Origin: Ruditapes philippinarum
Lineage: Eukaryota
Direction of reading: 5' to 3'
Length of the DNA: 64,000 bases
Assembly (NCBI RefSeq): GCF_026571515.1
Contig: NW_026863897.1
Coordinates: forward strand, 1-64,000
The translations under genes were made by a program, and so were the position numbers. Under the pieces are notes generated by a model. The model was not told where the DNA came from. It saw only the letters and a program-made list of their open reading frames with translations, and made no database searches. Shown piece after piece: positions 1,320 through 56,450 of the stretch; the stretch's first letter is position 1, and every line of letters starts with the position of its first letter.

Positions 1320-1380
1320 ATGTTCAAACAATGTTGCACTTTGGTTGCAGGCACATACTTTTTTCTTAGCTTATTTTGTT
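1320..1380 (+). CDS. LU-LU-mucin-vWA secreted protein, exon 1 (putative signal peptide MFKQCCTLVAGTYFFLSLFCS)
   Basis: ATG at 1320 followed by a hydrophobic stretch. Phase-1 donor T|GTAAAC is in frame with the next exon. The donor is only moderate, so this is the least certain exon. Confidence 0.55.
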
Positions 1381-1561
1381 GTAAACAAGGAAAGTCGATA
1401 TATCTTTATTATTATACATTGTGTAGTAATTTCAGAAATAATTTGTTTATTTTAGATTCAAATTTGTATGTAACATATATGAAGTAAAATATCATTTTTA
1501 ATAATTTAAAAATTAAATAATGTATAATGTAACACTTTAAAACAAAGTTTTTATTTTATAG

Positions 1562-1710
1562 CTCAAAGTTTACAATGTCTTGAATGTCAGGAACTTCCAC
1601 GCCCTGATGATTGTCGTATAACAACAACTTGTTCCGGTAACAGTATGTGTTATGTGGAGCAAGTCGTTACAAGCGGAGGTTTGATACTCTATAGCAGCGG
1701 ATGTGCCTCT
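1562..1710 (+). CDS. LU-LU-mucin-vWA protein, exon 2 (LU domain 1, N-half: QSLQCLECQELPRPDDCRITTTCSGNSMCYVEQ...SGCAS)
   Basis: TTTTATAG acceptor, GTAAGT donor; LxCxxC start typical of Ly6/uPAR folds. Confidence 0.88.
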
Positions 1711-2201
1711 GTAAGTCAACATAATACATTGCTAGAACTTTATTTTTGCAACTATAAAAAGAATGTAAAGAGAAATATTTAAGCTATTTATAAAATGTTT
1801 TGAGTGTTACAATTTTAAAGTTTCTGCCATATTTCGAGTTTTACCTTGTGATGTAATCAAATTAAAAAAAATGAAGAAAAATCTAGGGCCACAAAATTAA
1901 CGAAAATAACAGAAACACTAAAAGGCGAATTATATTGCAGACTTTATTGATGAGGCTTTAGGAATATGCAACGTATCATACATCCAATAGTTGCAATTTC
2001 TAAAATGTGATCGATGTAATTAAAAGATCAGAAAGTATAGCAACCCTCGGACTTGCTCTTTTACCAAATAAAACAGTAAAATTGGAATCTCAACAACAGT
2101 AGCCAAACAAGTTAAAACAAAAATGTTAAAGTATTATGGACATATTATCTATTTAAAATTGATATTTCTATACACCTTTTTTAATATTGTTGCGTTTCCA
2201 G

Positions 2202-2343
2202 GCGATGTTGTGTTCCATAAAACGATCTGTCACAAGTCGTGATTTGATCAAACGTCAGAATTTAGTGTCTAAGACAGATGTTGTTACATGTATGGAATGC
2301 TGTGAAGACGATTTTTGCAATATAGTAGGCTGTGGCCAAATAG
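2202..2343 (+). CDS. LU-LU-mucin-vWA protein, exon 3 (LU domain 1, C-half: AMLCSIKR...TCMECCEDDFCNIVGCGQI)
   Basis: TTTCCAG acceptor, G|GTACT donor; CCxxxxCN LU signature. Confidence 0.88.
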
Positions 2344-3310
2344 GTACTTGTTCAGTAATGTGATTTATAACAATAAAGATTTGTGATCGTTATACTGTAT
2401 ATATCAACATTTTTAATTTTTTAGATGATTTTGAAAAAAAAAACTTTCCTACTGCTAACTTAAATTTTATTTGATGTCATTGATAAAATTTCATCGAATG
2501 CTAAATGTAAAATTTTGAATACTAAAACTGAACTTAAACTGAAAAAAGATATTCATTGACAAAGACTTTTGCTGCTTTCAAAGTGATTTTAATGAACTGG
2601 ATTGAGTATATAGTTAAGATTTCTTAGTATTTCTCAAATTCATGATTTTCAAAATGATTTGTCAAAGAAAATGACATGGAATTCATTATTAGTTATCAGG
2701 AAGATTTGAACAGATGTCTCCTATTGATGCAAAATTTCGGAAAATTATATCTATTTGAAATACTTCAAACCTATATAAGTTGTAAACAAATTAGGTTCTG
2801 CTCAATTGCGAGGACAGTTTTAAAATAATTTGAATAACTTTTAAAACATTAGAAAATAAAGCAATTAGATGTGCATCGTTTACAAAACGCAGCTCGCACA
2901 ATTGCTTAAGGCAACGGCATCCTAAATGGCAACATAATGGATCTTAAGGTTAATAATAAGTTTAGAAAATAAATTTGATTTTAACAGCACACAAAGTGCC
3001 ATGGGCATAGATGGTTACGACTTGTTATATCTTGAAATGTCAAATAGAAAAAAAGACTTGTTTTATCTGTCATTTTCATAGGTGCGTATTGAGAGCACAA
3101 ACATAAACTCTCATCATTCAATATAATATCTTTATTTCTACATGCCCTAGAAAATCATTTCACTAAACATGTGATTTAATGTCGAGCTATTACGTGATTG
3201 AAACAGAAACAACATTCAACAAAACATTCACGATATGTCAAATATTGATCTATAATATGCCATGGATAAGTATTTAGCAAACATCACTTTTAAACATTTT
3301 TTACCCTTAG

Positions 3311-3408
3311 GTTCAAAACCGCAACAAAGACCACCAATATGCTTCGATTGTCAACACCAGCTGAACCCTACGAGTTGTCGGGATGCAACACTTTGCAATG
3401 CAGACCAC
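3311..3408 (+). CDS. LU-LU-mucin-vWA protein, exon 4 (LU domain 2 start: ICFDCQHQLNPTSCRDATLCNADH)
   Basis: CCCTTAG acceptor, GTACTG donor; phases match neighbours; Cys spacing matches domain 1. Confidence 0.85.
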
Positions 3409-3870
3409 GTACTGTTAATATTCTATGCCGCTATCATAATTTGTATTCGTTAATGTTTAAAGTTTAAGCCAAAAAGCAAGCAATAAAAATATGCCGCAAT
3501 ATACTAATAGTCATAATATTGTAAGTATATTGATATTATTCAAAGATGATTTATGTACACATGAATGCAGCCCAGCTAACAACATTTTGCTGTGTTGGGC
3601 TTTCTTTATGGATTCTGTTTTACTTTATTTTTATTTGTATATTCTATATGCTACTAAGTTTCCACTTGATATTATAAAACATCTCTAAATAAATGAAGTA
3701 GACTGAGCTGATATAAAAATATCTGAAAGATCTCACTGAATAAACTACAATTGCAAATTCAGTGTCTTCAGCTTATTTAATTAATGCTAAAAGTTTGTAT
3801 AATGTTGCATTTGCTCATCATTGGTATTTAATACTACATGTCTATTAATTTATTTATTTTCCTTACACAG

Positions 3871-3927
3871 ATGTGTGCATTACAACAAAACGGCCATGAT
3901 TGGAAAAGTGAATGTGCGCCTACACTT
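3871..3927 (+). CDS. LU-LU-mucin-vWA protein, exon 5 (MCALQQNGHDWKSECAPTL)
   Basis: Strong polypyrimidine tract plus ACAG acceptor, GTAAGT donor, phase 0/0. Confidence 0.85.
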
Positions 3928-4600
3928 GTAAGTAATTATATTCTTTATGCAGTATTAAATTGTTTTCTCGACCCAAGTGCTTTGACAGTGCATGATAAAG
4001 CGGGGGGTGGGGTTGACAGTGCGTGATAAAGCGGGTTGGGGGTTTGGGGGTTGGGAATAATCACCTTCCTTTATCTTCAACTTGTCTTGCGCTGTAATAC
4101 CTCTAGGTGCTATAATAACAGGTGTTTTTTTCTATTCGGAATGCCAGAAATATAGTAGGGATTGCATTATCTTCTTGATCGTGCTGGACCATGCCTTTAC
4201 TGTGGATTCAATTAACCAAAATTATGTCTGATACTGTCCGGATGTAGTGGACGGGCCTACAAGGAACTACAGCATTATATACCCATAACATGCCTTATTG
4301 CCTTTATTTCACTTTTTTCTACTTGGTTATTCCTACATTAGTTACATCCTTGTTGTTACTTTGATACTGATTTCATTTATTTCTTATGAATTTTACAGAA
4401 ACATAAAATAATGTTCAGAACCGATTTATCATCATGCACCACACAAGCAAACTGGTAATAAATGTTTATAAAAAGAAGAGGCAAGTTTAATCCTTGCAAT
4501 CGAAGCGTGTTTATTACAAACAATATTGTACTGCAAAATTACGTTTTCAAGTATAATTGAGCTGTATCAAAATATAAAAGTTACATTTTTGATATTACAG

Positions 4601-5318
4601 CAATGCAAGGCAATGGAGCAGCTTAGTTTGAATAACGTTGCTGGACCCTGTCATACATGTTGCAATGACGACTTCTGTAACAACAAATGTACTCTTCATA
4701 ACAGTGGAACAATTACGTCACTGTCACCTACTTCAGATACAACAATATCTTCAAAACTAAATCAAACAAAGATTATGACACCAACAAAACAATTGTCAAC
4801 AATAATGGCATTAACAAATATAAGTACTACAACTTCAGCCTCTGGTGCATCTTCAGCATATACCACCACCTTCATGCCAAAGACATTCGCGTCAACCACA
4901 TTTTCAGAGCCACCTGCGTCGGCAACATCACCATGGAGGCAAATATCTACAACGTTATCAGGAGGTCTAGCGTCTTCAACATCTGCAGAAGCTCTTTCAT
5001 CTTTAACATCTGGAGGGGCTCAATCGTCTTCAACACCTGCAGGAACTCTATCGTCTTCAAAACATGCAGATATCTTCTCGTATCCAACATCCCCGAAAAC
5101 AATAGTAACAACTTCCTTCGCGTCTACTGCTCAAGTACATGTTCAATCGACAGAAAAAGTGTCTACTATTCATGAAGATAAATCATCAATTCAAACAAGT
5201 CAGGTGTCGACCAGAACAACATCTTTTACGCCTTTAGTTTCTGTAACGAAAGATACTTCATCAATAAATTTAACAAAAGATCCAACTTCCACCGTGCAGA
5301 CAACTTTATCATCACAAG
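4601..5318 (+). CDS. LU-LU-mucin-vWA protein, exon 6 (end of LU2, CHTCCNDDFCNNKC, plus ~205-aa Ser/Thr-rich mucin-like stalk)
   Basis: TTACAG acceptor, CAAG|GTAGA donor; lies within ORF 4526-5326; very Thr/Ser/Pro-rich. Confidence 0.9.
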
Positions 5319-5688
5319 GTAGATGATAAATGTTAACAATATACATGTACATACCTATTCGATATACAATCATATTGTAAAGCGTTACACCTTTCAAAAA
5401 AAGTAAAGAAAGAAAAACGAATTCTCAAGAAACATGAATCCATTATCGAAGACCATTGTCGTCTTTATTTTGTTCACAAAATGTTGTTCTTCTCGTTCAA
5501 TTATATTAAAGTAAATTCGTATTTGTCTGTTCCTAAAATTGAAACAATCCATGTAATTTGTTGTTACGTGTTGAAAATTAATAATGACAATCATAAGTTA
5601 CAAAGTTTTATGTAACTTTATATATTTTCAAAGCACTATTTGTGATACTAGCATACTATCTTAATAATCGTTATCTAATTTGTTTCAG

Positions 5689-5850
5689 ATTGTAACAAGA
5701 CACTTGACATATGTTTTATTGTTGATTCATCAGGAAGTCTTGGTCCTGTAGGATTTGAAAAAGAGTTAAACTTTGTCACGAGTATGATTTTAGCTATCTC
5801 GTCAAAGACATCAGCAGATGCAGAGTTTTGTGTCATAACATACTCAACAA
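5689..5850 (+). CDS. LU-LU-mucin-vWA protein, exon 7 (vWA start: DCNKTLDICFIVDSSGSLG...FCVITYST)
   Basis: TTTCAG acceptor, GTAAGG donor; DxSxS MIDAS motif (DSSGS). Confidence 0.92.
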
Positions 5851-6786
5851 GTAAGGTTTACTCATTACTGTTGATAGGTTTATAACAGGTGATGAATATC
5901 TCGGAAAATTTATTTTATGGTCATTCATTTTACATACTTTGAAATTAGTCACTGGCCTTACTGAAAATAGAATTAGCATATTAATAAATCCAAGAACACT
6001 AAAAGCCTGATGGAAACCTGGTTCGTAGTAAGAGTATCATTACGTATCACTGTTTTGAATCCAGCCTGCAGTAGTTTTCTTTTTCCTTTTCATTATTAAC
6101 AGTTTCCTTCGAGTTTTTCTTTTTTGTTAAAGTGACATTATGCTCTTTTTTTCATTGTCAAGTTGAGCTAAATTGACTATGTATTTCAAAAAATTGTCAT
6201 TTATAATGGTGATTTACCAATAGTTGATATAGAAAAATCTTGAGAAATGATAAAATATAAATCTGACTATAAATAGACTGCCCATCTCTTTTATAAATAG
6301 AAAGTCACGAGTAAATTCCGATGGATATTTATAAAAATCCCCTGGCGCTATGTGAGTTATTTCGCCTTCATGCAAAATTGATTATAAAATTGAAAGAAAT
6401 TATGGCTAATGCAAACTTATTTTGACTTTTACCTGTTCACTCACATCCATTGGATGGGCACAATGTCACCAATACAATTATCCTGTTGGAAGCAACATGT
6501 TGTACTCATGTGACCATTGCACACCAAGATCAGCAGGCACATCCGGACCTTTTGGTCATGATCCTCTCTGTTCGCTATTCAGTCAGTACAATTTCCCGAA
6601 TTGTTTTATTTAGACAAAAAGATGGGCAGTTTAATTTAATTAACTTAAAGTGGTGAAGCCTATACTTGAATATGGAATTAAAGAAAAACAACATTATTTA
6701 GCTATCATTGAATATACAACAAGATGATGTACCTAATTCTCTTTATTTGTTTATTAAATACTGGTTCATGTTTTTTTCTTCAACAG

Positions 6787-6865
6787 GAGCACGTGCATAT
6801 ATCAAACTACAACATTATCACACTGTCGCAGAAGTAATCCACGCCATTGGAAACATACCATACAT
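6787..6865 (+). CDS. LU-LU-mucin-vWA protein, exon 8 (vWA: ARAYIKLQHYHTVAEVIHAIGNIPY)
   Basis: TTCAACAG acceptor, AT|GTAAG donor; typical vWA AI.xIPY segment. Confidence 0.88.
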
Positions 6866-6884
6866 GTAAGATATTATTTTGCTC

Positions 6885-7156
6885 ATAGATGTTCATTTGC
6901 TCATTTCACACATACTGTAGATATCCATTCGCTCATTTCAACATACTGTAGATATTCATTCGCTCATTTCACACATACTGTAGATATTCATTCGCTCATT
7001 TCACACATACTGTAGATATTCATTCGCTCATTTCACACATACTGTAGATATTCATTCGCTCATTTCAACATACTGTAGATATTCATTCGCTCATTTCACA
7101 CATACTGTAGATATTCATTCGCTCATTTCACACATACTGTAGATATTCATTCGCTC
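6885..7156. repeat. 32-bp minisatellite (TTCGCTCATTTCACACATACTGTAGATATTCA)n, ~8 copies, resuming at 8006-8046
   Basis: Tandem units read directly; some units are 31 bp. Confidence 0.95.
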
Positions 7157-8005
7157 GGTTGTTTTAAGAATATTGAAGACTATTTACTTTTACTATACAA
7201 ATCAAATTGGTCTGACAATGTTACAAATGTGGCAAAGCTGAGAACATATGTTACATTCAAACAAGACTATGAAACAGAAAAATATCTCATGTCTTCCTTA
7301 ACTAAAGCAGAAAGGTCCCATTTAGCTCAATTAAGATGCGGTATTCTTCCGCTCAAACTAGAAACAGGACGATACGTGGGATTACGTGTTGATGAAAGAA
7401 TATGCACTCTTTGTACTGACAATGTTGTTGAGGATGAAACTCACTTTATATTGAAATGTTCTAGATACAACGATTTACGTGTTAATTTGATTTCTAAATG
7501 TAAAGAGAGTAGCAGTGACTTTGACAATATGTCTGATATTCAAAAACTAAGTTATGTGATACAAAATCAATATGTAGCGCTGCAAAGTTTATTGTAGAAA
7601 GTATGAAAAGAAGAAGGTTATATCTTTATAAATGACCTGATGTTTTACATAATAAAAATTTACTTGAGTGTATTGAATCATGTTAAAATATCACCAGACA
7701 TATTTGAAAATAACAAGAAATATAATAACATATCTTAACATTGTTTAGAATTTATAGCTTTTGAAATTTTGATATGCTTTGCTTGTTTATATGGAATTTT
7801 GATGATTGACCACTGTATTTCCGATTAATTTTTCTATGCTTTACATGTTTTATTGTAAATCATTTATATGAATTGTATATAGTTTAAAGTGACTTATAGG
7901 CCCAACGTGGCCGGGTATTGTAATTTGTAATGTTGTAATGTATGTTTATTATATTGTACATAACACAATGTCACTATACTAAAATTTACTTACTTACATA
8001 CTTAC
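7157..8005 (+). mobile_element. 5'-truncated non-LTR retrotransposon (ORF2 C-terminal Cys/His domain, 3' UTR, (ACTT)n tail)
   Basis: ORF 7229-7597 contains LRCGILPLKLETGRY...ERICTLC...EDETHFILKC, a LINE ORF2 C-terminal motif. Apparent frameshift near the end. Tail TTACTTACTTACATACTTAC. Confidence 0.88.
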
Positions 8006-8946
8006 ATTTCACACATACTGTAGATATTCATTTGCGCATTTCACACAATCATACTGGTTAATAAATTTAAACAGAACTGTTATGTTTATATAATAAGTTT
8101 TACTTATTTCGTCGTTATATAACTGTATTAGTGGTAAGAAACATCCATAGTTTTGAAATAAAAGGAAACGAAAAAAAAAAACACGAAAAAAACCAAACAA
8201 AAACAAAGAAAAACATATGAGAAAAAAGAAAAGAAATTGAAGTTAATTTAAACGAGATAATGTATGTTCAGAAACCGTTTATATTTTTTTCATCTATCAA
8301 CCGGACATTATTATATCTTCATATTTTTATGATAAGTGTCTAAAACCAATGCTAAACCATGTAAACAGTTGTGCAAAAAATAAGGAAAGCTTACCATCCC
8401 GATTTGGAAATAAAAACATTTAAAATGGTAAAACAATCATGTTGTCACTCATTTTAAGCTATGAATACATATAAATATGCAAATATTTCTTATTTTAAGA
8501 TTTTGTCAAATCTTAATCTGACAAGACAAGAAGAAATAACAAGGGTTCGGTCTTTGCGATTATGATTATATTACCACAATTGTAAACACCACATTATGCA
8601 ATATTATTTGATAATAAAAAACAAAAAAAAAAAAAAAACAAACATTATCTATATCCAACGAAAAGGAAAATTCAGTTTCAATATAATTTCCAGGAGATGT
8701 AATTTTTCGAGTCAATAACAAATACAATATCGCAACCTCTATTTTCGTTATTTCTTTTCACATGTATTGTTCCAAATAAGATTTTCTAAAGTCATGCAAA
8801 GTTTAAAGAATCCTAATTTTTATTCTGACTATATTTTATTTCTATATGACAACTGTTACAAACGTCCTTTAAGATAAGTTATTTTTTGTTGGAAAAAATA
8901 AATTAAAGCTGTTTTACTGACCTGAATTGTCATATTTTATTCACAG

Positions 8947-9102
8947 AACTGGAGAGTCGTACGCTTACCGTGGTATTCATCAAGCACATAGTCAGTTCAG
9001 CCACAATGGACGTCACCATGCCAAGAGTGTAACTATTCTTATAACAGATGGTCACTCCACTGACCCAGATAGAACAGTACATGATACTGATCATCTCCTA
9101 CA
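8947..9102 (+). CDS. LU-LU-mucin-vWA protein, exon 9 (vWA: TGESYAYRGI...VTILITDGHST...)
   Basis: TTCACAG acceptor, CA|GTAAGT donor; ILITDG is the vWA MIDAS Asp motif. Confidence 0.92.
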
Positions 9103-9967
9103 GTAAGTGATAGTAGACATCATGTTCACATATTGTCGAGACATTGCATAATGTTATAAAGAGGATATGCAGCTTACTTTAATTATATTTATACTACCTC
9201 CACTATGTACCAATTATTGATTGACACACTTTATATATAGAACTGGTAAGTTTAAAACAATAAAATTTATTTAAGACATAGAATCACTGAATATTCTAGA
9301 GGGTGTGTATTTTGATAGAATATACAAAAATGGCGTTTTTCTTAACATAACATTATATCACAAATTGTCATAAATGCACTAATATAAAGCAAGTCACGAT
9401 CATGAAAGTCAGCAATGTAAGAAAAGGGGATCTTTAAGGTAGACTAAGACGTCTTTGATACAGTACAGGCTCAGTTTAATTGTTAATTAAGCCTGTAAAA
9501 ATGAAAGTCAATGGTTAATGCAGGCCGTCGTGACCAAACATTTACGTATTATTATTATGTATTAGATAAAAATAGATATAAAACCTTATAAATATTTTTA
9601 AATGTAAGATATTGTATCACAAATCTTTAAAGTGTATTTCAACTAATAGATTTGTAGTCGTTGATGATTATTTCTAATTCTTCTTAAGCAATTAGATATT
9701 AATAATAAGTACTGCTTTGCCAGCTGTTAACAGACAAGTAATTTATAGTTGTAGATGTGCTCTTTTCCAACTCCAGTAAAGCATTGTCAATTATCAATGT
9801 ATGATAAAAACATCGTATGGGTAAAACTTTTGAAGACTCACATGTTTTTACAATGTTTTCAATTTTATCGCCATAGAAAAATTAGCGAGCAAAAAAAAGC
9901 GAATTCTAATTTTGCTTCATTTGCTATGTTGGTTAGTAATTTTCAATACCGTGACTTCACATTTTAG

Positions 9968-10127
9968 AAATGTTGATAAATATGCTGTTACCACCGGTTC
10001 ACAAACGAACACAAGCGAACTGCCGCAGATAGTTTCTGGACCAAACCATCTTTTTCAAGTCCAGGACATCAACCATTTAGATGGGATACAAATGAAACTT
10101 CTAGAAACTCTGTGCAGCAGTGCATGA
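9968..10127 (+). CDS. LU-LU-mucin-vWA protein, exon 10 (vWA end ...ELPQIVSGPNHLFQVQD...LETLCSSA*)
   Basis: ATTTTAG acceptor in frame; EL..I.S.P.H.F.V vWA C-terminal pattern and closing Cys; TGA at 10125-10127. Total CDS 1782 nt = 593 aa. Confidence 0.88.
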
Positions 10128-11660
10128 GGTACGTAGTTATAAATTGTTTTATTTGTATTATCATACATACCGACTTCTTTCCTATTTCTGATGTCTTCAT
10201 TTGCAAAATTATACCCGAAGATTATCTTTATTGTCGTTGTCCACTATTCCCGATTTGTATGATGGTTTTATACTAAAATGATGCTCTGATCTGTATATGT
10301 TTAAACAGTAGGTCTGATATCTATTATGTCGTGATAGCAACGAGGACAAGAACAAACTGTATGAAATTTTTTGTTGATATTTTAACTTCGATGCAAGACT
10401 CCGCCATCGTTACACAATAAAGTTTTACTTTGTTCATTGGATTGCTAAGAGGTGACATTAGGAATTAGTACGACCTTAGACATTTATAAGATAAAGCTAG
10501 TTTCCTATAACATTCTGAATACATTTTAAATCAGAACAGTTTGCAACAGAATAATATTACATGATTTACTTTGCATTTACGTGGCGTGGTGTGTAAACTA
10601 TAGCATTCTCTAATATATGAATTGCATTTTTGTGTGATGAGCACTTTTTTCAAAATCACTCAATTATTAACTACACTGCAGAACAGATAACCACAACGCG
10701 GCATTTCCATATACCTATTTATCTCCCTTTACCTATTATATTAACCAGCTTTTGTGAAATTTTCTTTTTTGTAGTTTCCGGAAGTTTGGCTTTGGAAAAT
10801 TCTATTAGACCGCCACTTCCAAAATCTTCTGAAATTCTTGATTATTTTTACAAAAATGGTTATTCTAATAAACGTTATTTAGATTACTTGACTTTCGTTT
10901 TCAATGTTCTGGCAACAATAAAAAGTGTTTAAATTGCGTCGACACTTAAATTCGACCAGTTGAGGTTTGCTACAGAACAGGTAAAAGTGGATTTGTCTAC
11001 CATGGACAAATTTTAATCAAGTAAATCAAGTATTTAAAATATTGACGAAACACAATAGCAATATATTATTTGAATATACTAATATACAAAATATTTCTTG
11101 AAAAAGAAATTGATTATCGAGTTCTAAGTGCTTAAGTATAAGATTTATTATATGATGCAAAATAATATTTTGTTGTAGAACAATTTTGTAATTGCAATAT
11201 GTACTAAGGACCATGTATGCAACATCCATAAATATTTATTTGGTGATTTGTTGTCATTTATGATACTAGTAAATAGTAAATACTTTGAACAAAATTGTTT
11301 ATACATGTAGTATTATATGCATTCCAAAATGGACTAATTCACTTTAAGCTATTGTTACAAAAAAGTGCTGTGCTTATTAAGTTTTTAGCAAAGTATGTGT
11401 GTTATGATTTTATAGTGCTTAAGAATATTTATGTCAGTATTCACACGCTCAAATACTGTAACATGTTAATTGATTAGCACAAATTGTTATATCCCATGCC
11501 TTTCCTTGCTTTTATACACATGTTTAAACCATAACCATATTTCTTTATACAAACGTGTAATTTAATCATAATGGTACTTTAATATTAAGAGCCTGTTTAT
11601 AAATGGAAAACAATTGTCGACCGTGTTTTTGGTTAAATGTTTATTTGTTACATGATAAAA

Positions 11661-12143
11661 AGAATCTGACATGAGTTGCCATTTAAAGATATTAATTCTA
11701 TGCTCAAATTTTATATTAGAAAATATTGATAATTGCTAAACAGTTTCTTTGTAAATATAAAATAGACATGTTTTGACTTCACACAGAGAAGATATGTTGT
11801 TAAAAATTCTACACATTATAGGGGGTCAGGATATGAATATACAGTGACATTAAAAAAAACTGGCAATTTTTCAAGAAAAGAGTAACTTAACTTCACCTGT
11901 AATAGGGAACACAGCTTCCCATACATAGTTTATTTATTCTTTAATTCAAATAAGACATATTCAAATTGAATTTCATAGATTTAAATAAATTTCTGTGATG
12001 AAATTATTTTACTCAAGGATGAGCATAGTATTTCTTTCATATAAACTATTTGAAACTCGTAAAGCTTGGGCTTGCTTTATAACATTTTTTCTGAACATTT
12101 TTCATCAAATTTTATTATCACATTACAACTCATGTTAGATCCT
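11661..12143. mobile_element. Degenerate MITE with 18-bp TIRs
   Basis: AGAATCTGACATGAGTTG (11661-11678) versus the reverse complement of 12126-12143 (AGGATCTAACATGAGTTG): 16/18 match. Confidence 0.5.
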
Positions 12144-14869
12144 ATATATTTACCTGTATAAGTGCCGGTAATGGATTTATTGTACCTATTGAATTTGCAT
12201 GCGTTTAATATAAATATTGCAATGTAGTACTCGATATTAATCTTTCAACATAAAAATATCAAAATAAGAATCCCTAATGGAAGTCAATAACGTTAAAATT
12301 CTAAATGTTGCAGACTCGATTTCATTGATCCTGCTCATGGACGGTTCTGTCAACTGCAAACTACTATCCACACCCCCTAGCACCGGCTTTATCATGGTAA
12401 TGGTGAAATTTTGAATTTAGAAACGTCCGCAGATGTGTTCATACGGCGGTTATCATGGAACCTTCGATGTGTAACGTTAATGCCATTCCATGACAAGCGG
12501 CGTATTATCCCCAATAATATTACTGCAAATCAAAACGGTGTGCAACCGATATCAAAGGGACATTATTGCCCTGTAAATAAATTAAGGACAAAGTTAATTC
12601 ATAGTCTCCCTTTGTCGTACAAAACGTTATCGTCATGTTTACCGAATTCATTGAACCGGTGCTTTTAGGTAAACAAATTGTCGCAAAATTCAAGGTCTGA
12701 GTTATATATGAAACTTTAAAAATGTATTTATAATTAATCAGTAAAGGATAATAAACACTGTGTTTTAAGTATATACTTCTCATTGGCGTCCGCGCCGAAG
12801 CGCGGCGCTCTTATGGAATGAGATCAGATTTTGAGAAAGGGCGAAAGCAACTTCTCGAGTCTTTTAGTCGGTCATAATAAATGCCGAAAATTCCGATCGG
12901 TATGAGGGTGCTTGATTATTAAATAAGAATGAAATGTCGCGATATGTTACAATGAATTTTCGCAATGCAAACATTTACAAATGAAATAACCTTTTCCGTC
13001 AATAAATCGCGCTCTTCGGGGTTTTTTATTTATCATTTTGTAGTACACAGTCGGTTATCATGTCATGGTATGTTATTGTTGTACATGTATCCTAGAATGA
13101 TCAGTTGATGACCTAAATATTCCAAAAACCTATTTATAGATATATCTTTTTATCACTCCTATCGGTAAATGCCGGTCTCTCCCGGTCTATTTTGACCAGG
13201 ATTTACTAGTGACCGGCGAATAGTACCACACGTTATATTGTCCGGTCTCTCCCGGTTTTGGAGTAGATGTTTGATATCGTTACAATTAGAAAAAAAACAA
13301 CAATAGCATGTTTCATTTTATCTATATGAGATAAAAACAATAAATATGTACACGGATTTATATGTAATATAAATCCGTGATATGTACAATAATTGAGAAA
13401 AAGGTACATTTTTTATGGTATTAAAATGACATTATCAACTTTGAAACATTTTATTTAATTATTCAATTTGTTATCCGTGTTTAGTAAAGATGCCGAGGAA
13501 TTATTCAAAGTTACAAATTAGATTTCATGAATTATTCAATTGATCGATAATTTAAAAAATGATAAAGAAAAATACAATGTACATGTACATGGTTTAAGAA
13601 TAAACAATATTATAGATTGAAAGATAAACCATAATTTACTGACTTTTTCCAGTTAAGCTTTGACTTATAATCGTCGGTCAATATGACAATTGAATTCCTA
13701 AAATTTATTTTACAATTTTAATAAAAAAGAGTAGTAAAAACTCAGTATTAAAATAGCACATAAACACAAAAAAGAATAAAAGAAAACAATATTCATAAAA
13801 TTTGTATTTTTTTTAAATTAAAATTAATAGATATTACAATTATTGTATAATAAACAATTATGCTCAACATGATCAACATGGTAATATAACCAGTGTCATA
13901 TTTTTACTAACTTAAAGTGTGAACAGATACCTTAAGGTGACAACAGACACTTTTCGTGGTACTCACATAAATGTCATTTAAACCAACTTATTTCAGTAAT
14001 AATTGTTATTTATTTTATCTTTGTGCATTAAATGTCGTTGATTATCATAAAAAATAACATATTTGAAAAAAATGCCTTTGTAAATGATTGATTTTTAATA
14101 AAAATCCTAAAATTTTAAATCGTCATATCAAAGTCATTTTTTATTTTTTTGTCATCAAACTTTTGGAAAATAAACATACTTATAATATCTGGGGAACCGT
14201 GTCTCAAATTTTTTCTATATTTTCTCAAAAAAAAATTACGTAACGTCAAACGTTTTATGCGACTTTTTTCACCATACATATTACGTAATGAAAGATAATT
14301 AAGTCGCTGATTGAGCAAACAAAAATCCCTGACACGGTTCCCTCCGTAAATGAATTCCCTTCCATGTGCTTTAAACCGCATGTTAATTGCTTGATTATTA
14401 AAAAAGTTATGCCGATTCAAAGTTAGTCCGACCCGGATCAAACGAAGTGTCTTCGCTAATAGCGATAACATGTACATAATAAGGGACAAATGTGTGGTAC
14501 GTGTTGATCATGCGTTACACATATGGATTATAAATGATTGCATACATGTATATCCGTTGCTATTAATAACCACGATCATAAAGAAATAACAAGTAATATT
14601 CTAATCTCTAGCATGCCAATCAAAGTTCATAATGAACAATGTCTTTCGTCAGCTCATTCATAAGTGGTATACATTTCTGGTAGTTTATAAGAATATCTTG
14701 TCATCATATGTGTACTAGTTCATCTTCACTTGCTGCATTTCTTGCTTGGACGCCCTTTGATGCTTTGCATCAATGCTTTTCTTGTTCAGTTTTGTTATGT
14801 GTTAACTGTTATATACATGTATGTATGATAAGAAAAAGTAAAACAGTCATAAAGTTATCTCATGAAGCT

Positions 14870-15870
14870 TTATAGTGTATAACTGTTATACACGTATCTC
14901 AAGTATAACTGCTAGACACGTATCTCAAGATACTTGATAATGCATAACTGTTATACACGTATCTCAAGATACTTGATAATGCATAACAGTTATACACGTA
15001 TCTCAAGATACTTGATAATGCATAACTGTTATACACGTATCTCAAGATACTTGATAATGCATAACTGTTATACACGTATCGCAAGATACTTGATAATGCA
15101 TAACAGTTATACACGTATCGCAAGATACTTGATAATGCATAACTGTTATACACGTATCTCAAGATACTTGATAATGCATAACTGTTATACACGTATCGCA
15201 AGATACTTGATAATGCATAACTGTTATACACGTATCGCAAGATACTTGATAATGCATAACTGTTATACACGTATCGCAAGTTACTTGATAATGTATAACT
15301 GTTACACACGTATCTCAAGATACTTGGTAATGCATAACTGTTACACACGTATCGCAAGATACTTGATAATGCATAACTGTTATACACGTATCGCAAGTTA
15401 CTTGATAATGCATAACTGTTATACACGTATCGCAAGTTACTTGATAATGTATAACTGTTACACACGTATCTCAAGATACTTGATAATGTATAACTGGTAT
15501 AGGCGTATCTCAAGATATTTTATAATGCACAATTGTCATACACGTATGAAACTTTATAATGTGTAATTGTTATAGACGTATCTCAAGATACTTTATAATG
15601 TTTATCTGTTATACACGTATCTCAAAAAGCTGTATAATGCATAACTGTTATACACGTATCTCAAGATACTTTACAATGTTTATCTGTTATACACGTACAT
15701 GTATCTCAAAAAGCTGTATAATGTATAGCTGTTATACATGTATCTCATGATACTTGATAATGTATTTCTGTTATACACGTATTTCGAGAAGCTTTATAAT
15801 GTATTTCTGTTATACACGTATTTCGAGAAGCTTTATAATGTATTTCTGTTATACACGTATCTCAAGAAGA
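14870..15870. repeat. 39-bp minisatellite (TGCATAACTGTTATACACGTATCTCAAGATACTTGATAA)n, ~25 copies
   Basis: Homogeneous core at about 14925-15490 with diverged flanks; explains the 13-aa repeat ORFs on both strands. Confidence 0.97.
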
Positions 15871-16643: not shown

Positions 16644-17092
16644 CTATAATGTTGTAGGAGATTTCAGATCCCCACAATGTTTCTTTTGATCTATATCATT
16701 TTCCGATTTTGGCTTTGAATCGATATCTGACAATGAGATTTCTAGTTTACTTGCACCAAGTTTTGTATGAATAGAATTGTTATTGTCTGTTTCGCTCTCG
16801 GAACGCGGGGAATCCGGATGTGACGACATCGGGCTAGGAGGAGAATCAGCACTTCCGGTTGATAGGGGGCGTGGGCGTCGCTTAGCTTCATCCTTTTTCC
16901 ATTTCATTCTTCTGTTTTGAAACCAAATTTTTATGTGTCTCTCTGTTAAATTCAACATGGCAGCAAGTTCTATCCGACGAGGTCGTGAAATATATTTGTT
17001 AAAATGAAACTCTTTTTCAAGCTCGAGAAGCTGCCCTCTAGTATAAGCTGTTCTTGTTCGCTTGTTCTCATCTTCCATTGAATACTGGGCAC
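16644..17092 (-). CDS. Xlox: Xlox/Pdx ParaHox homeobox gene, coding exon 2 (homeodomain and Ser/Pro-rich tail)
   Basis: Acceptor TATTCCAG|GT at 17093 joins exon 1 in frame (G|GT = Gly). Homeodomain [59 protein letters not shown] has the Pdx-diagnostic His in ERHIKIWF. Spliced CDS 520+449 = 969 nt, 322 aa. Confidence 0.97.
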
Positions 17093-43078: not shown

Positions 43079-43598
43079 CTGGCCATTGAGCTTTCCATTG
43101 TGCTGCGTGAGATTTTGTTGTTTTCATCCATGGAAACTGTAAATTAGAGTTCGGACTTTTTTGAGGACTATGTAACCCACCGTCGTCTACATCCGGGGAC
43201 ATCTGAGCTGTGTTCTGTGGTTGGTGTGCCGGCGGAGGAGTCGAAAGCTGCATCTGCGGAACTGCCATCGGATGATGAGCACTTTGAACACTTTGCATAT
43301 GTGCCGGAGTCGTGTTGGCCATTTGTGACTGTGCTACCCCTGGATTCATGTGTTGTAGAGCCTGTTGTTGTATTCCATGATTGTGTGATATTTGCTGAGC
43401 GTTTTGACTAATTCCATGAAGTCCTTGTTCCACCACGGACATGGGTTGCCCACCATACCCGCCATTCCCGGTGTTTCTGGCATACACGCAAGCCGGCTGC
43501 GATGAATGATAAGCACCACTGACGGCACTATAACTGTTGTCATGTGCATATTGCATAGGTTGATTATAATATGCACTCGCGCCTTCCATTTGTAACAT
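43079..43598 (-). CDS. Xlox: Xlox/Pdx ParaHox homeobox gene, coding exon 1 (N-terminal activation region and hexapeptide)
   Basis: ORF MLQMEGASAYY...PACVY...LQFPWMKTTKSHAAQWKAQWP. FPWMKxTKxHA..WKxQW is the Pdx/Xlox hexapeptide context. Ends at a phase-1 donor CCAG|GTAAGA (intron starts at 43078). Start could be Met 43598 or Met 43589. Confidence 0.95.
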
Positions 43599-53808: not shown

Positions 53809-55345
53809 TGAAAAAGACCAAATGCATTTTGTACATGAAATTTAGTTGAATTTTAAACAATGTCAACAATTTTATTTTTAGAATTAACAAAAGCAGCTTT
53901 TTCACCTAAAGCCTCGTCTAAAATGATAATTTAATCTGGTCTTTCTGTCAGTCGAAATAAAATAGCAATTCCGGTTTACTTATGTTTCAATAAATCGCAT
54001 CACTCGATTATTATTTTAGTTTGACTTACGGTATATTAAATAAAACAAACATGGAACACATATCACGATTCATGCCATTAGGAATTGTGTTTTTGAAAGT
54101 ACTGACAAAGGAAGAATTTTACAAATCTAAAGAATCATCGATTAAAGAAACAGATGTCAGAAAATTATCAGACATGTAATTAAATCCTATATGAAATCAT
54201 TTTCTCATTTTACAAATACGGAAACTAATATATAATAATGTAAAATGTATATCAATTTCATGATTGATAAAATATCCTATTAGTACAGAATGTATTCGAA
54301 ACATCAACTTAAAGATTTAAATACTATCATAACAGTTCAGAAAATATATTCTTCTTTTTTTCGAATAAACGTGGGCAATTTTTTTTAATCACAGACAGAG
54401 TAGTGTTTTCATATTAACATAAATAGTATTCTACAAAACCGGTAACAAAAATGGCGCCCATTGTGTTTCTCAGATCGTAAAAGTATGATAAAATAATTTC
54501 GATTTTTTTCTCCTTTTCGAAAACATTTCTTGAATGGTCTCTTCTTTTATTTTTTGTACAGAACTTCTGGACTTGTTTTAAAAACAACTAAATCTGAGAA
54601 CAACAAATACTTCTCCTAAGAAATGCAAATGCAATTTTTTTAATATACCCTCATCTCACAATATCATTTTACTGCTGAAAATATTGCGGATTGCGGTTTG
54701 ACGCGAGTTACAACCTCGTTGTACAATAGATTTAAAGAGGCAAGATTTAAAAGCTACTAATTAATTGAAACCTCCCACAACTGTAACTCTTACATCTTTC
54801 AAGACATGATCATAAAAATACCACTCGTTTTTTCTACAATAAAATACAAAGAAACGCACGAGATGCAGATATTACCCTTGATCCCTGTAACATTTTAATT
54901 ATAACGTGCGGTATTTGGGCGTTTTTTGTTACGACTCCTTTTTTAAAACATTTTTTTTGGAGAAAAGAAAGGGGAAAAAAAGAAGCTCTTCTTAATAAGG
55001 CATTTTTACTTTGATATGGTTTCCATGTGTACATTAAATCACTATTGATTGTTCCTTACAAAGAAACTATCCGACATTTTGTTTTTTGTTTTTTTAGTTA
55101 AGATTTTCTTATCATTTTATAGTTTTAAATTTATAGCTGAATGTTTTAAAATGATAAATTAATAAAACTCAAATGACAAGATGTGATTACATATTCATAA
55201 TTTTTTACATCGCACCAACACAGTCATATGACAACTTTTCAGCTTTACTGGTGGAGGAAAACGTCAGTTGTCCCTCCGTACTTTATTTCACAAGCACGAG
55301 CGGGCACCTGCGTATAAACACTGACGTTCTTGATGTTTATACTAT

Positions 55346-56450
55346 ATATATATTTAAATGTAAAATATATGACTTAAAACCTAGAATTTATTGCCAATTG
55401 TTTGATGCTTTTGTTGGTTCAATTTTAGGTTACGCTTCTGAAATATGGGGTTTTACAAAGTCTAAAGAATTAGAACGAATCCATTTGAAGTTTTGTAAAC
55501 GAATATTAAACGTTAGGTTAAATTCTAGTAATGCAGCTGTTTATGGAGAGTTGGGAAGATATCCGTTGTATATAAACCGTTATGTTAGGGTACTAAAATA
55601 CTTTTTTAAAATTAGCTCGAGTGAAAACATAATTATAAGATCTGTTTATAAAATGAGCGCTAACGACTGTAATAATGGTTATACAAATTGGGTTTCTCAT
55701 GTTAAGAGGATGTTAGATAATTACGGATTCTCACATGTATTTGAGAACCCTAGTTCTGTAAATGTTAACGCATTTATTTATGAATTTAAATGTAGATTGA
55801 TAGATACTTTTAAGCAAGAATGGTATGGAAATATTAACACAAACTCTGTCTTGAATATGTATAGAATATTTAAAACTACACTTGAATATGAAATATACTT
55901 AGATTTATTACCAAGGAAATTACGCACTTATTTGGTTAAACTTAGAACTTCTTTACATCCATTGAGAATACAAACAGGGAGATATACTCGTAATTATTTA
56001 CCAAGAAACGAAAGATATTGCTTATGTTGTAACACAAGAGATATTGAAGATGAATTCCACTTTATTTGTATATGTAATTGCTATTCTCAAATAAGAAAGA
56101 AATATATCAAACGTTTTTATTTTGTCAATCCATCTGTTTTTAAATTTCATGATTTGCTTACTTCTTCAAATAAAAACGATATTGTTAATTTGTGCAAATA
56201 TATGAAAGAGGCATTTATTATTCGAAATTCATTTATAAATAATATGACCTGATGCGCTGTAGTATACTTATTACCTTACTGTCTTTGTTATACATGTATG
56301 CAGTATATGTAAATATATGTTAAAGTGCATTTGATTAAACTTTTGTAATATGTTCTAGATATGTGACATGTTTAACATTGATGTTTATGTATTAAGATGA
56401 TATACTTATGTATAAGTCTAATAAAATGTCTGTTCTGTTCTGTTCTGTTC
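55346..56450 (+). mobile_element. 5'-truncated non-LTR retrotransposon (post-RT/thumb region and C-terminal Cys/His domain) with (TGTTC)n tail
   Basis: Open frame ...LGYASEIWG...LERIHLKFCKRILNV...VYGELGRYPL...LRIQTGRY...ERYCLCC...EDEFHFICIC to TGA 56252; AATAAA then (TGTTC)4; possible TACTAT target-site duplication (55340-55345 / 56451-56456). Confidence 0.92.

Follow-up and report, generated by a model that had tools for sequence, protein, structure and literature searches.

The clam Ruditapes philippinarum carries a gene for a protein in which two LU (Ly6/uPAR) domains are followed by a Ser/Thr-rich stalk and a von Willebrand factor A (vWA) domain. The LU pair of this protein heads a large family, in which the third loop (loop 3) of the LU domains is enriched in Lys/Arg-Arg and Gly-Lys/Arg-Arg motifs; it is this family-wide enrichment that seems to be new. 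The gene itself is real and has already been annotated by NCBI, and its LU and vWA parts are carried on one transcript. It is located within the window, that is, the whole stretch of 64,000 nt analyzed here (assembly GCF_026571515.1, contig NW_026863897.1, positions 1–64,000 of the forward strand), to which all positions refer.

The LU-vWA gene and its product

Splicing of the ten exons put forward in the original prediction gives a stop-free frame of 593 aa, with every intron of the GT-AG type. The gene had been described as hidden. It is not: when exon 2 was used as a query, an NCBI protein of 594 aa from R. philippinarum, annotated as "mucin-2-like" (P0001, used here for residue numbering), was retrieved together with a 636-aa protein from Mercenaria (P0002). 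Exons 2–10 encode the last 572 residues of P0001 (572/572 identical), and the first 21–22 residues of the model differ. Eight of the nine junctions are supported by contigs from each of two sets, X1 and X3, in which they show up as GT-AG skips; the sets come from different studies, and their RNA nature was guessed by the tool used. An X3 contig of 1552 nt begins within exon 2 and continues into the vWA exons, and all X3 joints up to exon 9 have the same depth as this contig (118.5). The LU and vWA exons are hence not on separate transcripts, as one spliced contig carries both.

Support for the ten-exon model does not extend to its first exon. Depth is 0 in X1 and X3 across bin 989–1482, which includes the proposed exon 1 (1320–1380), and the 1380/1562 joint was not seen among the 15 joints listed, 141 further joints lying beyond these. 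In X1, a contig shows 91 other letters preceding position 1560. The N-terminus of P0001 is not encoded in the window, where the best six-frame match covers 9 of 21 residues. Furthermore, the donor at 1380 follows the consensus at 4 of 9 positions, compared with 5–7 for the confirmed donors, and positions 1–1500 contain eight ATG-to-phase-1-GT candidates of the same type. The real signal-peptide exon is located upstream of the window, and 1320–1380 sits in intron 1. At the other end of the gene, a donor is present one base past the stop codon, and the X1 depths (19.4 and 11.7) correspond to a splice from 10128 to 10775 (expected 19.7 and 11.5) and not to read-through (31.7 and 0). The gene therefore probably comprises at least 11 exons, including a 3′ untranslated exon starting at 10775; this joint lies outside those listed and was deduced from depth.

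Some details of the gene can be added. At the tandem acceptor 6784–6790, both 6787 and 6790 are in frame and the contigs choose 6787. The RNA-type contigs differ from the window by non-synonymous changes at positions 4705, 5129, 9062, and 9072 (S205R, A347T, D529N, R532K) and by silent ones at 4738 and 5035. The Mercenaria protein is seven residues longer at its C-terminus, and an alternative frame over the clam stop codon (10110–10135) gives the His-Glu found in Mercenaria, which hints that the clam tail may have been shortened by a small frameshift. Intron 8 contains a 32-bp minisatellite of 8.5 copies (6886–8050), which is broken at about 7157 and resumes at about 8005; the break corresponds to the 3′ end of an element resembling a long interspersed nuclear element (LINE), with a short tandem tail.

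LU1 spans Cys27–Cys115 and LU2 Cys129–Cys200. Judged by sequence, P0002 is the Mercenaria orthologue, with the same domain order and an identity of 47% overall, 62% in LU1, 65% in LU2, 32% in the stalk, and 51% in the vWA domain. Pfam UPAR_LY6 scores, 17.8 bits for P0001 and 23.2 bits for P0002, fall below the curated cut-off of 24.8 bits. When solved structures were searched with the sequence of the LU pair, the match was weak (SLURP-1, E 0.011), and a full-length fold predicted from 2 sequences was uninformative (predicted local distance difference test, pLDDT, 36.6). When the LU pair was modeled from a 74-sequence alignment, the predicted fold reached a pLDDT of 91.5 and a predicted template modeling score of 0.84, the loop containing the Lys-Arg sites being its least confident part (60–75). 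The LU1 model best matches GPIHBP1 (Z 9.2, root-mean-square deviation (rmsd) 2.5, 75 residues aligned), and the LU2 model matches Prod1 (Z 8.9, rmsd 2.9, 70 aligned) and CD59 (Z 8.5, rmsd 4.1, 73 aligned); in the structure matches to the LU halves, the first 39 rows are three-finger-type chains, judged by their titles. We consider that this modeled fold outweighs the sub-cut-off Pfam score and that both domains are divergent LU members, in keeping with the two three-finger-like domains first proposed. The model also predicts rigid packing of the pair.

The LU consensus comprises ten cysteines and an Asn following the tenth, according to the available text of a 2019 review (PMC6600238). Both clam domains have the ten consensus cysteines and one extra pair, 12 in all. 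From the cysteine spacing, the disulfides would pair 1-5, 2-3, 4-6, 7-8, and 9-10. LU1 is encoded by two exons (2 and 3) with phases 1-0-1, as is typical for LU domains; LU2 is spread over three exons and ends within the stalk exon, unlike the two-exon phase-1 layout, which is typical, not universal.

The stalk had been estimated at about 205 aa. It is 209 aa long, cysteine-free, with 44% Ser+Thr and 5% Pro, and is likely O-glycosylated. The single vWA domain (residues 410–594) scores 89.4 bits in Pfam against a cut-off of 23.8. Metal binding by vWA domains relies on a DxSxS motif plus Thr and Asp ligands; D422, S424, S426, and D524 are present in the clam protein, and the Thr position is taken by Ser494 (Thr in Mercenaria), which by its residues is a near-canonical site. 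Among solved vWA chains the nearest are those of collagen VI alpha-3 (E 3e-22) and mussel PTMP1 (E 5.2e-16), which share the flanking cysteines. As regards the ends of the protein, its N-terminus is hydrophobic (hydropathy peak 1.83 over 15 residues). Neither a hydrophobic tail nor a glycosylphosphatidylinositol (GPI) signal was found in the C-terminal region, where hydropathy peaks at 0.47 in P0001 and -0.38 in P0002, and the stop agrees with P0001; the proposed lack of a transmembrane segment or GPI tail was thus borne out. Gel-forming mucins such as MUC2 have vWD, C8, TIL, and cystine-knot domains. A Pfam scan at E ≤ 1 returned VWA and LU-clan families only and none of these four; the label "mucin-2-like" is therefore a misnomer, the likeness to MUC2 being limited to a long Ser/Thr-rich stretch.

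Partner swapping and loop-3 motifs in the LU-pair family

A profile built from three LU pairs retrieved 465 cluster representatives at E ≤ 0.001 and 278 at 1e-10, a family size far above that suggested by word-based homologue searches (2–3 proteins only). We scanned 149 relatives (P0003–P0151) with Pfam and tallied their partners ourselves. A non-LU partner is present in 90 of them, 66 of which have a lectin, fibrinogen, C1q, immunoglobulin (Ig), or FcGBP domain. The main partners are C-type lectin (33), IgGFc-binding (12), Ig (10), fibrinogen (9), EGF (8), and vWA (5) domains; less frequent are MIB_HERC2 (3), C1q (2), kringle (2), and TSP1, MAM, CUB, WSC, Kazal, and histidine phosphatase (1 each). 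At least 15 partner types are fused to the LU pair. Three named clams, together with Atlas clusters in which Mollusca is the commonest phylum, point to a mollusc origin of the family; hits to Atlas features stayed below 0.9 throughout and count as leads. Heads are diverse (median identity 31%). A Ser/Thr stretch follows the head in 52 of 76 cases, the Ser/Thr stalk is 75–395 aa long in all seven LU-vWA proteins, and a strongly hydrophobic segment beyond residue 40 occurs in the proteins of 3 of the 102 heads that match the whole pair. In these 102 heads all 24 cysteines are kept at high frequency (94–102 heads), C75, C101, and C104 each being found in 101–102, and Asn follows the tenth consensus cysteine in 100.

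For a clade test we chose 37 of the 102 rows, used a simpler model, and removed the loop-3 columns (P0107 lies outside the 102). A single clade for the heads of six vWA fusions was rejected (approximately unbiased test, p 1.2e-10). The clam LU pair was placed among lectin fusions, near P0026, its nearest row in the tree being a lectin fusion (support 96/70, not starred). The second vWA domain of P0026 is the closest to that of the clam (32%), with the inner cysteine pair in common. On this tree, LU+vWA arose more than once; as the heads of the vWA fusions do not form one clade, the architecture appears to be one outcome of repeated C-terminal swapping. The LU pair is probably the constant part of these proteins and the C-terminal domain the swapped one. 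The odd partners in P0109, P0116, P0133, and P0083 (MIB_HERC2 in three, histidine phosphatase in one) may be genuine or may stem from faulty gene models. P0004 has 182 aa, is closely related to the Mercenaria protein, and ends inside LU2; it may be a short isoform, a fragment, or a paralogue.

Motifs were counted in the 102 proteins, of 151, that match the whole pair, the 49 partial matches being dropped. Lys/Arg-Arg occurs in loop 3 of LU1 in 65 heads and of LU2 in 54, compared with shuffle means of 22.8 and 19.2 (maxima 33 and 32). For Gly-Lys/Arg-Arg the counts are 30 and 38, with shuffle means of 1.9 and maxima of 6 and 7. Considering either loop 3, 85 heads have the first motif and 61 the second. 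Order is strongly biased (Lys-Arg 107, Arg-Lys 18), and in 77 cases a Gly directly precedes the basic run, with Ile, Phe, or Val before that Gly. The other six head segments show Lys/Arg-Arg at background level, and its density is 4.24 per 100 residues in loop 3 against 0.33 in the C-terminal remainder. The position of the motif floats in a loop that ranges from 8 to 47 residues. Because LU2 loop 3 contains no Lys/Arg-Arg in the three profile query sequences, the excess found there is not query-derived. The excess in both loops persists among 47 heads below 45% identity with the queries removed, where Lys/Arg-Arg is found in 30 and 23 and the form with Gly in 18 and 14. All seven LU-vWA fusions have Lys/Arg-Arg in LU1 loop 3, and more than one site is present in 27 of the 102 LU1 loops.

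Convertase substrates typically present Lys/Arg-Arg within an exposed flexible loop, and in the precursors of peptide hormones a Gly-Lys-Arg preceded by a hydrophobic residue signals cleavage plus amidation. From its sequence and modeled fold, loop 3 of the clam protein agrees with the former rule, which makes it a putative cleavage site. The only dibasic sites of P0001, K78-R79 and K88-R89, lie in LU1 loop 3 and are conserved in Mercenaria; neither is preceded by Gly, unlike in most of the family. These sites had been overlooked in the original prediction. Several heads that have no dibasic site in either loop carry Val-Gly-Arg in loop 3, possibly a single-Arg form of the same signal.

Possible maturation and role of the protein

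We give about even chances to the view that the clam protein is an adaptor of mucus or matrix, with a constant, convertase-clipped LU head, a glycosylated stalk, and a swappable vWA domain as its ligand end. The protein would be secreted, with its stalk O-glycosylated. A dibasic convertase would cut LU1 loop 3 at K78-R79 and K88-R89, freeing an 8-residue connecting piece and leaving LU1 as two chains joined by the disulfide that closes the loop; since Gly is absent before the Lys-Arg sites, the clam head would be cut, not amidated. The vWA domain may bind an acidic ligand residue in a Mg2+-dependent manner, and the matured LU head may have a docking or assembly role common to the family. The molecule would then bridge the vWA-bound ligand to whatever the family heads dock on, in mucus or matrix. 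A two-ended tether, as first envisaged, agrees with the data on the LU pair, the probably O-glycosylated spacer, and the metal-site vWA domain of this predicted secreted protein; its polarity is probably the reverse of that proposed, with the LU pair constant and the C-terminal domain exchanged.

For the family as a whole we offer a wider proposal with less confidence, as something short of an even bet: these would be a large, hitherto undescribed group of modular secreted recognition proteins of molluscs in which the 12-cysteine LU pair matures in a prohormone-like manner (loop 3 cut and often amidated). The resulting LU domain of two disulfide-linked chains would switch on docking or assembly, while the C-terminal domain (lectin, fibrinogen, C1q, Ig, FcGBP, or vWA) would set the target; the clam gene would be the vWA version.

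Several results weigh against these views. The relatives are predicted gene models, and some fusions may be artefacts. The furin form R-x-x-R is present in only 10 and 14 of the 102 loops, and 17 of the 102 heads lack a dibasic site in both loops, so cutting is not essential to the fold. Motif shuffles do not remove shared ancestry. The signal peptide is predicted from hydropathy alone. The kinship of the vWA domain with matrix proteins suits a structural role equally well. Lastly, two raw-read RNA runs (4–6% of each read) showed almost no exon coverage and no listed junction; such sparse coverage suggests restricted expression.

The best-placed alternative, which we regard as possible and rather doubtful, keeps the polarity of the original prediction: the LU pair would be the specific ligand head and the vWA domain a collagen or matrix anchor, making the protein a PTMP1-like cross-linker of adhesive, byssal, or shell matrix. 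The vWA domain is indeed closest to collagen VI alpha-3 and PTMP1 among solved chains, the diversity of the heads would allow for differing ligands, and vertebrate LU domains bind ligands, as the accessible part of PMC6600238 states. However, the same head is joined to 15 or more types of partner, recognition domains for the most part, our literature search found no shell or adhesive paper with the clam protein, and the loop-3 motifs, although compatible with this role, are left unexplained by it.

It is unlikely that the Lys-Arg motifs remain uncut and form a basic fingertip patch for acidic glycans, membranes, or a receptor. Basic fingertips occur in some three-finger proteins, and the loop that holds the motifs is exposed and modeled with low confidence; the bias for Lys-Arg over Arg-Lys, the Gly before the basic run, the hydrophobic residue before that Gly, and the floating position nevertheless suit processing better. 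Less likely still, by a good measure, is a precursor that releases a short bioactive peptide from between the Lys-Arg sites, an analogy with the amphibian two-domain three-finger precursors that release sodefrin. The two clam sites do flank 8 residues, and the LU1 loops with two or more sites would suit such a product, but the intervening piece is not conserved in Mercenaria, where a third site splits it, most family loops have a single site, and an amidated end would remain on a disulfide-held chain. An artefactual fusion of two genes, one with the LU and one with the vWA exons, is scarcely credible and largely refuted: a contig spanning two genes proves no single transcript and the RNA nature of X1 and X3 was guessed, but the in-frame GT-AG joint 5318/5689 is present in both, the 1552-nt X3 contig has uniform depth, and the Mercenaria orthologue has the same domain order.

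Snail FREP/CREP proteins (Ig and lectin) and collectins/ficolins also join a common module at the N-terminus to an exchangeable recognition domain at the C-terminus; in the clam family, the shared module is the LU pair with its processing-type sites, not Ig or collagen. PTMP1 (PDB 4cn8) and collagen VI have cysteine-flanked extracellular vWA domains as the clam protein does; PTMP1 matches over two vWA stretches in tandem and shows no match to LU, whereas the clam protein has one vWA domain behind the stalk and LU pair. Tandem LU domains are common to the clam protein, C4.4A/LYPD3, Haldisin/LYPD5, and uPAR, and uPAR and C4.4A are the top Foldseek rows; C4.4A also has a Ser/Thr-rich stalk. Superposition of the LU tandem on uPAR, C4.4A, or TEX101 fails (rmsd 17–20 Å, TM about 0.27). 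The clam protein differs from C4.4A, Haldisin, and uPAR in the extra cysteine pair per domain and in having a vWA domain in place of the anchor; these three are GPI-anchored and have an LU1 without the 7-8 disulfide, according to the consulted portion of PMC6600238, whereas the clam keeps both cysteines.

Mollusc LU fusions with C1q, fibrinogen-like, Ig, and MAM domains are named in the text of an Acta Naturae 2026 paper (PMC13719153). The legend to its Fig. 2, on invertebrate LU architectures, lists VWA, panel 2B(4) being left undescribed. Its main text does not name an LU-mucin-vWA or LU-lectin protein, a 12-cysteine pair, or a cleavage motif, and its figure or supplement may already include the LU-stalk-vWA architecture. 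The architecture is no isolated case: it also occurs in 5 of the 149 scanned relatives, and VWA is in that legend. Our literature search found neither a paper on the clam protein nor one dealing with cleavage motifs in the LU domains of molluscs, which is weak evidence of absence, most subscription papers being outside its reach. The clam protein is a variant within a class already known, the multidomain three-finger proteins. The single gene and its architecture are by themselves of modest interest; the surprising part is the family-wide processing signature. The LU domain is probably no true mobile module in the judgement of the 2019 review, as given in its accessible text (PMC6600238); this contrasts with the LU pair described here, which stands at the head of hundreds of predicted proteins and is joined to 15 or more types of partner. 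If the loop-3 motifs were cut and amidated, three-finger domains would gain a maturation of the peptide-hormone type, and many "uncharacterized" bivalve proteins, often labeled as lectins or mucins, would become one testable family.

Feature coordinates and the Xlox neighborhood

Table 1. Positions of the LU-vWA gene and of Xlox in the window.
Feature	Position	Strand	Evidence
Exon 1 of the original prediction	1320..1380	+	Unsupported: depth 0, P0001 N-terminus differs, weak donor
Exon 2: LU1, N-terminal half; phases 1-0	1562..1710	+	Contigs, P0001, Pfam UPAR_LY6 below cut-off (E 9e-5)
Exon 3: LU1, C-terminal half, including the extended loop 3; phases 0-1	2202..2343	+	Contigs, P0001, model
Lys78-Arg79, first dibasic site, LU1 loop 3	2220..2225	+	Sequence; kept in P0002
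Lys88-Arg89, second dibasic site, LU1 loop 3	2250..2255	+	Sequence; kept in P0002
Exon 4: linker and LU2 start	3311..3408	+	Contigs, P0001
Exon 5: LU2 middle	3871..3927	+	Contigs, P0001
Exon 6: LU2 end (to 4690) and Ser/Thr stalk (4691–5317)	4601..5318	+	Contigs, sequence
Exon 7: vWA start, DxSxS motif (D422, S424, S426 at 5724–5738)	5689..5850	+	Contigs, Pfam
Exon 8: vWA	6787..6865	+	Contigs
Exon 9: vWA with S494 (metal-site Thr position) and D524	8947..9102	+	Contigs, sequence
Exon 10: vWA end, closing Cys591, stop TGA 10125–10127, donor one base later	9968..10128	+	Contigs, splicing
Probable 3′ untranslated exon: AG acceptor start, end at the X1 contig's would-be end	10775..10873	+	X1 depth arithmetic
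Confirmed junctions	1710/2202, 2343/3311, 3408/3871, 3927/4601, 5318/5689, 5850/6787, 6865/8947, 9102/9968	+	X1 and X3 contigs
Xlox/Pdx exon 2 (homeobox)	16644..17092	-	PDX1 homeodomain 2h1k E 3.5e-33, sole match at 1e-25
Xlox/Pdx exon 1	43079..43598	-	Open reading frame; in-frame splice to exon 2

The LU-vWA gene is located directly 3′ of Xlox, a neighbor likewise overlooked in the original prediction. Both genes are arranged tail-to-tail with their stop codons 6.5 kb apart, and the Xlox intron is 26 kb long. The side 3′ of Xlox is the Cdx side in intact ParaHox clusters; within the 64-kb window neither a further homeobox nor a paralogue of the LU-vWA gene was found. Non-homeobox genes often intervene in mollusc ParaHox regions, as reported in the part of PMC7566022 at hand, and a functional link to Xlox is on that account unsupported. 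Pdx is active in oyster digestive tissue according to the accessible text of PMC8149454, and an expression in the gut shared with Xlox might be considered as a lead only.

Between the two genes, RNA depth is high in the region 11363–14800 and loose ends and mismatches abound, a pattern typical of repeats transcribed elsewhere in the genome. A vWA-like reading of 12270–12413 was discarded, as its RNA depth is repeat-like and no relative matches it. Positions 14905–15867 contain a 39-bp tandem repeat of about 25 copies. Beyond Xlox exon 1, a 364-aa open reading frame (55158–56252) is akin to the intron-8 element (27% over 173 aa, E 1.5e-17) and is likely a retroelement remnant inside or near the upstream region of Xlox.

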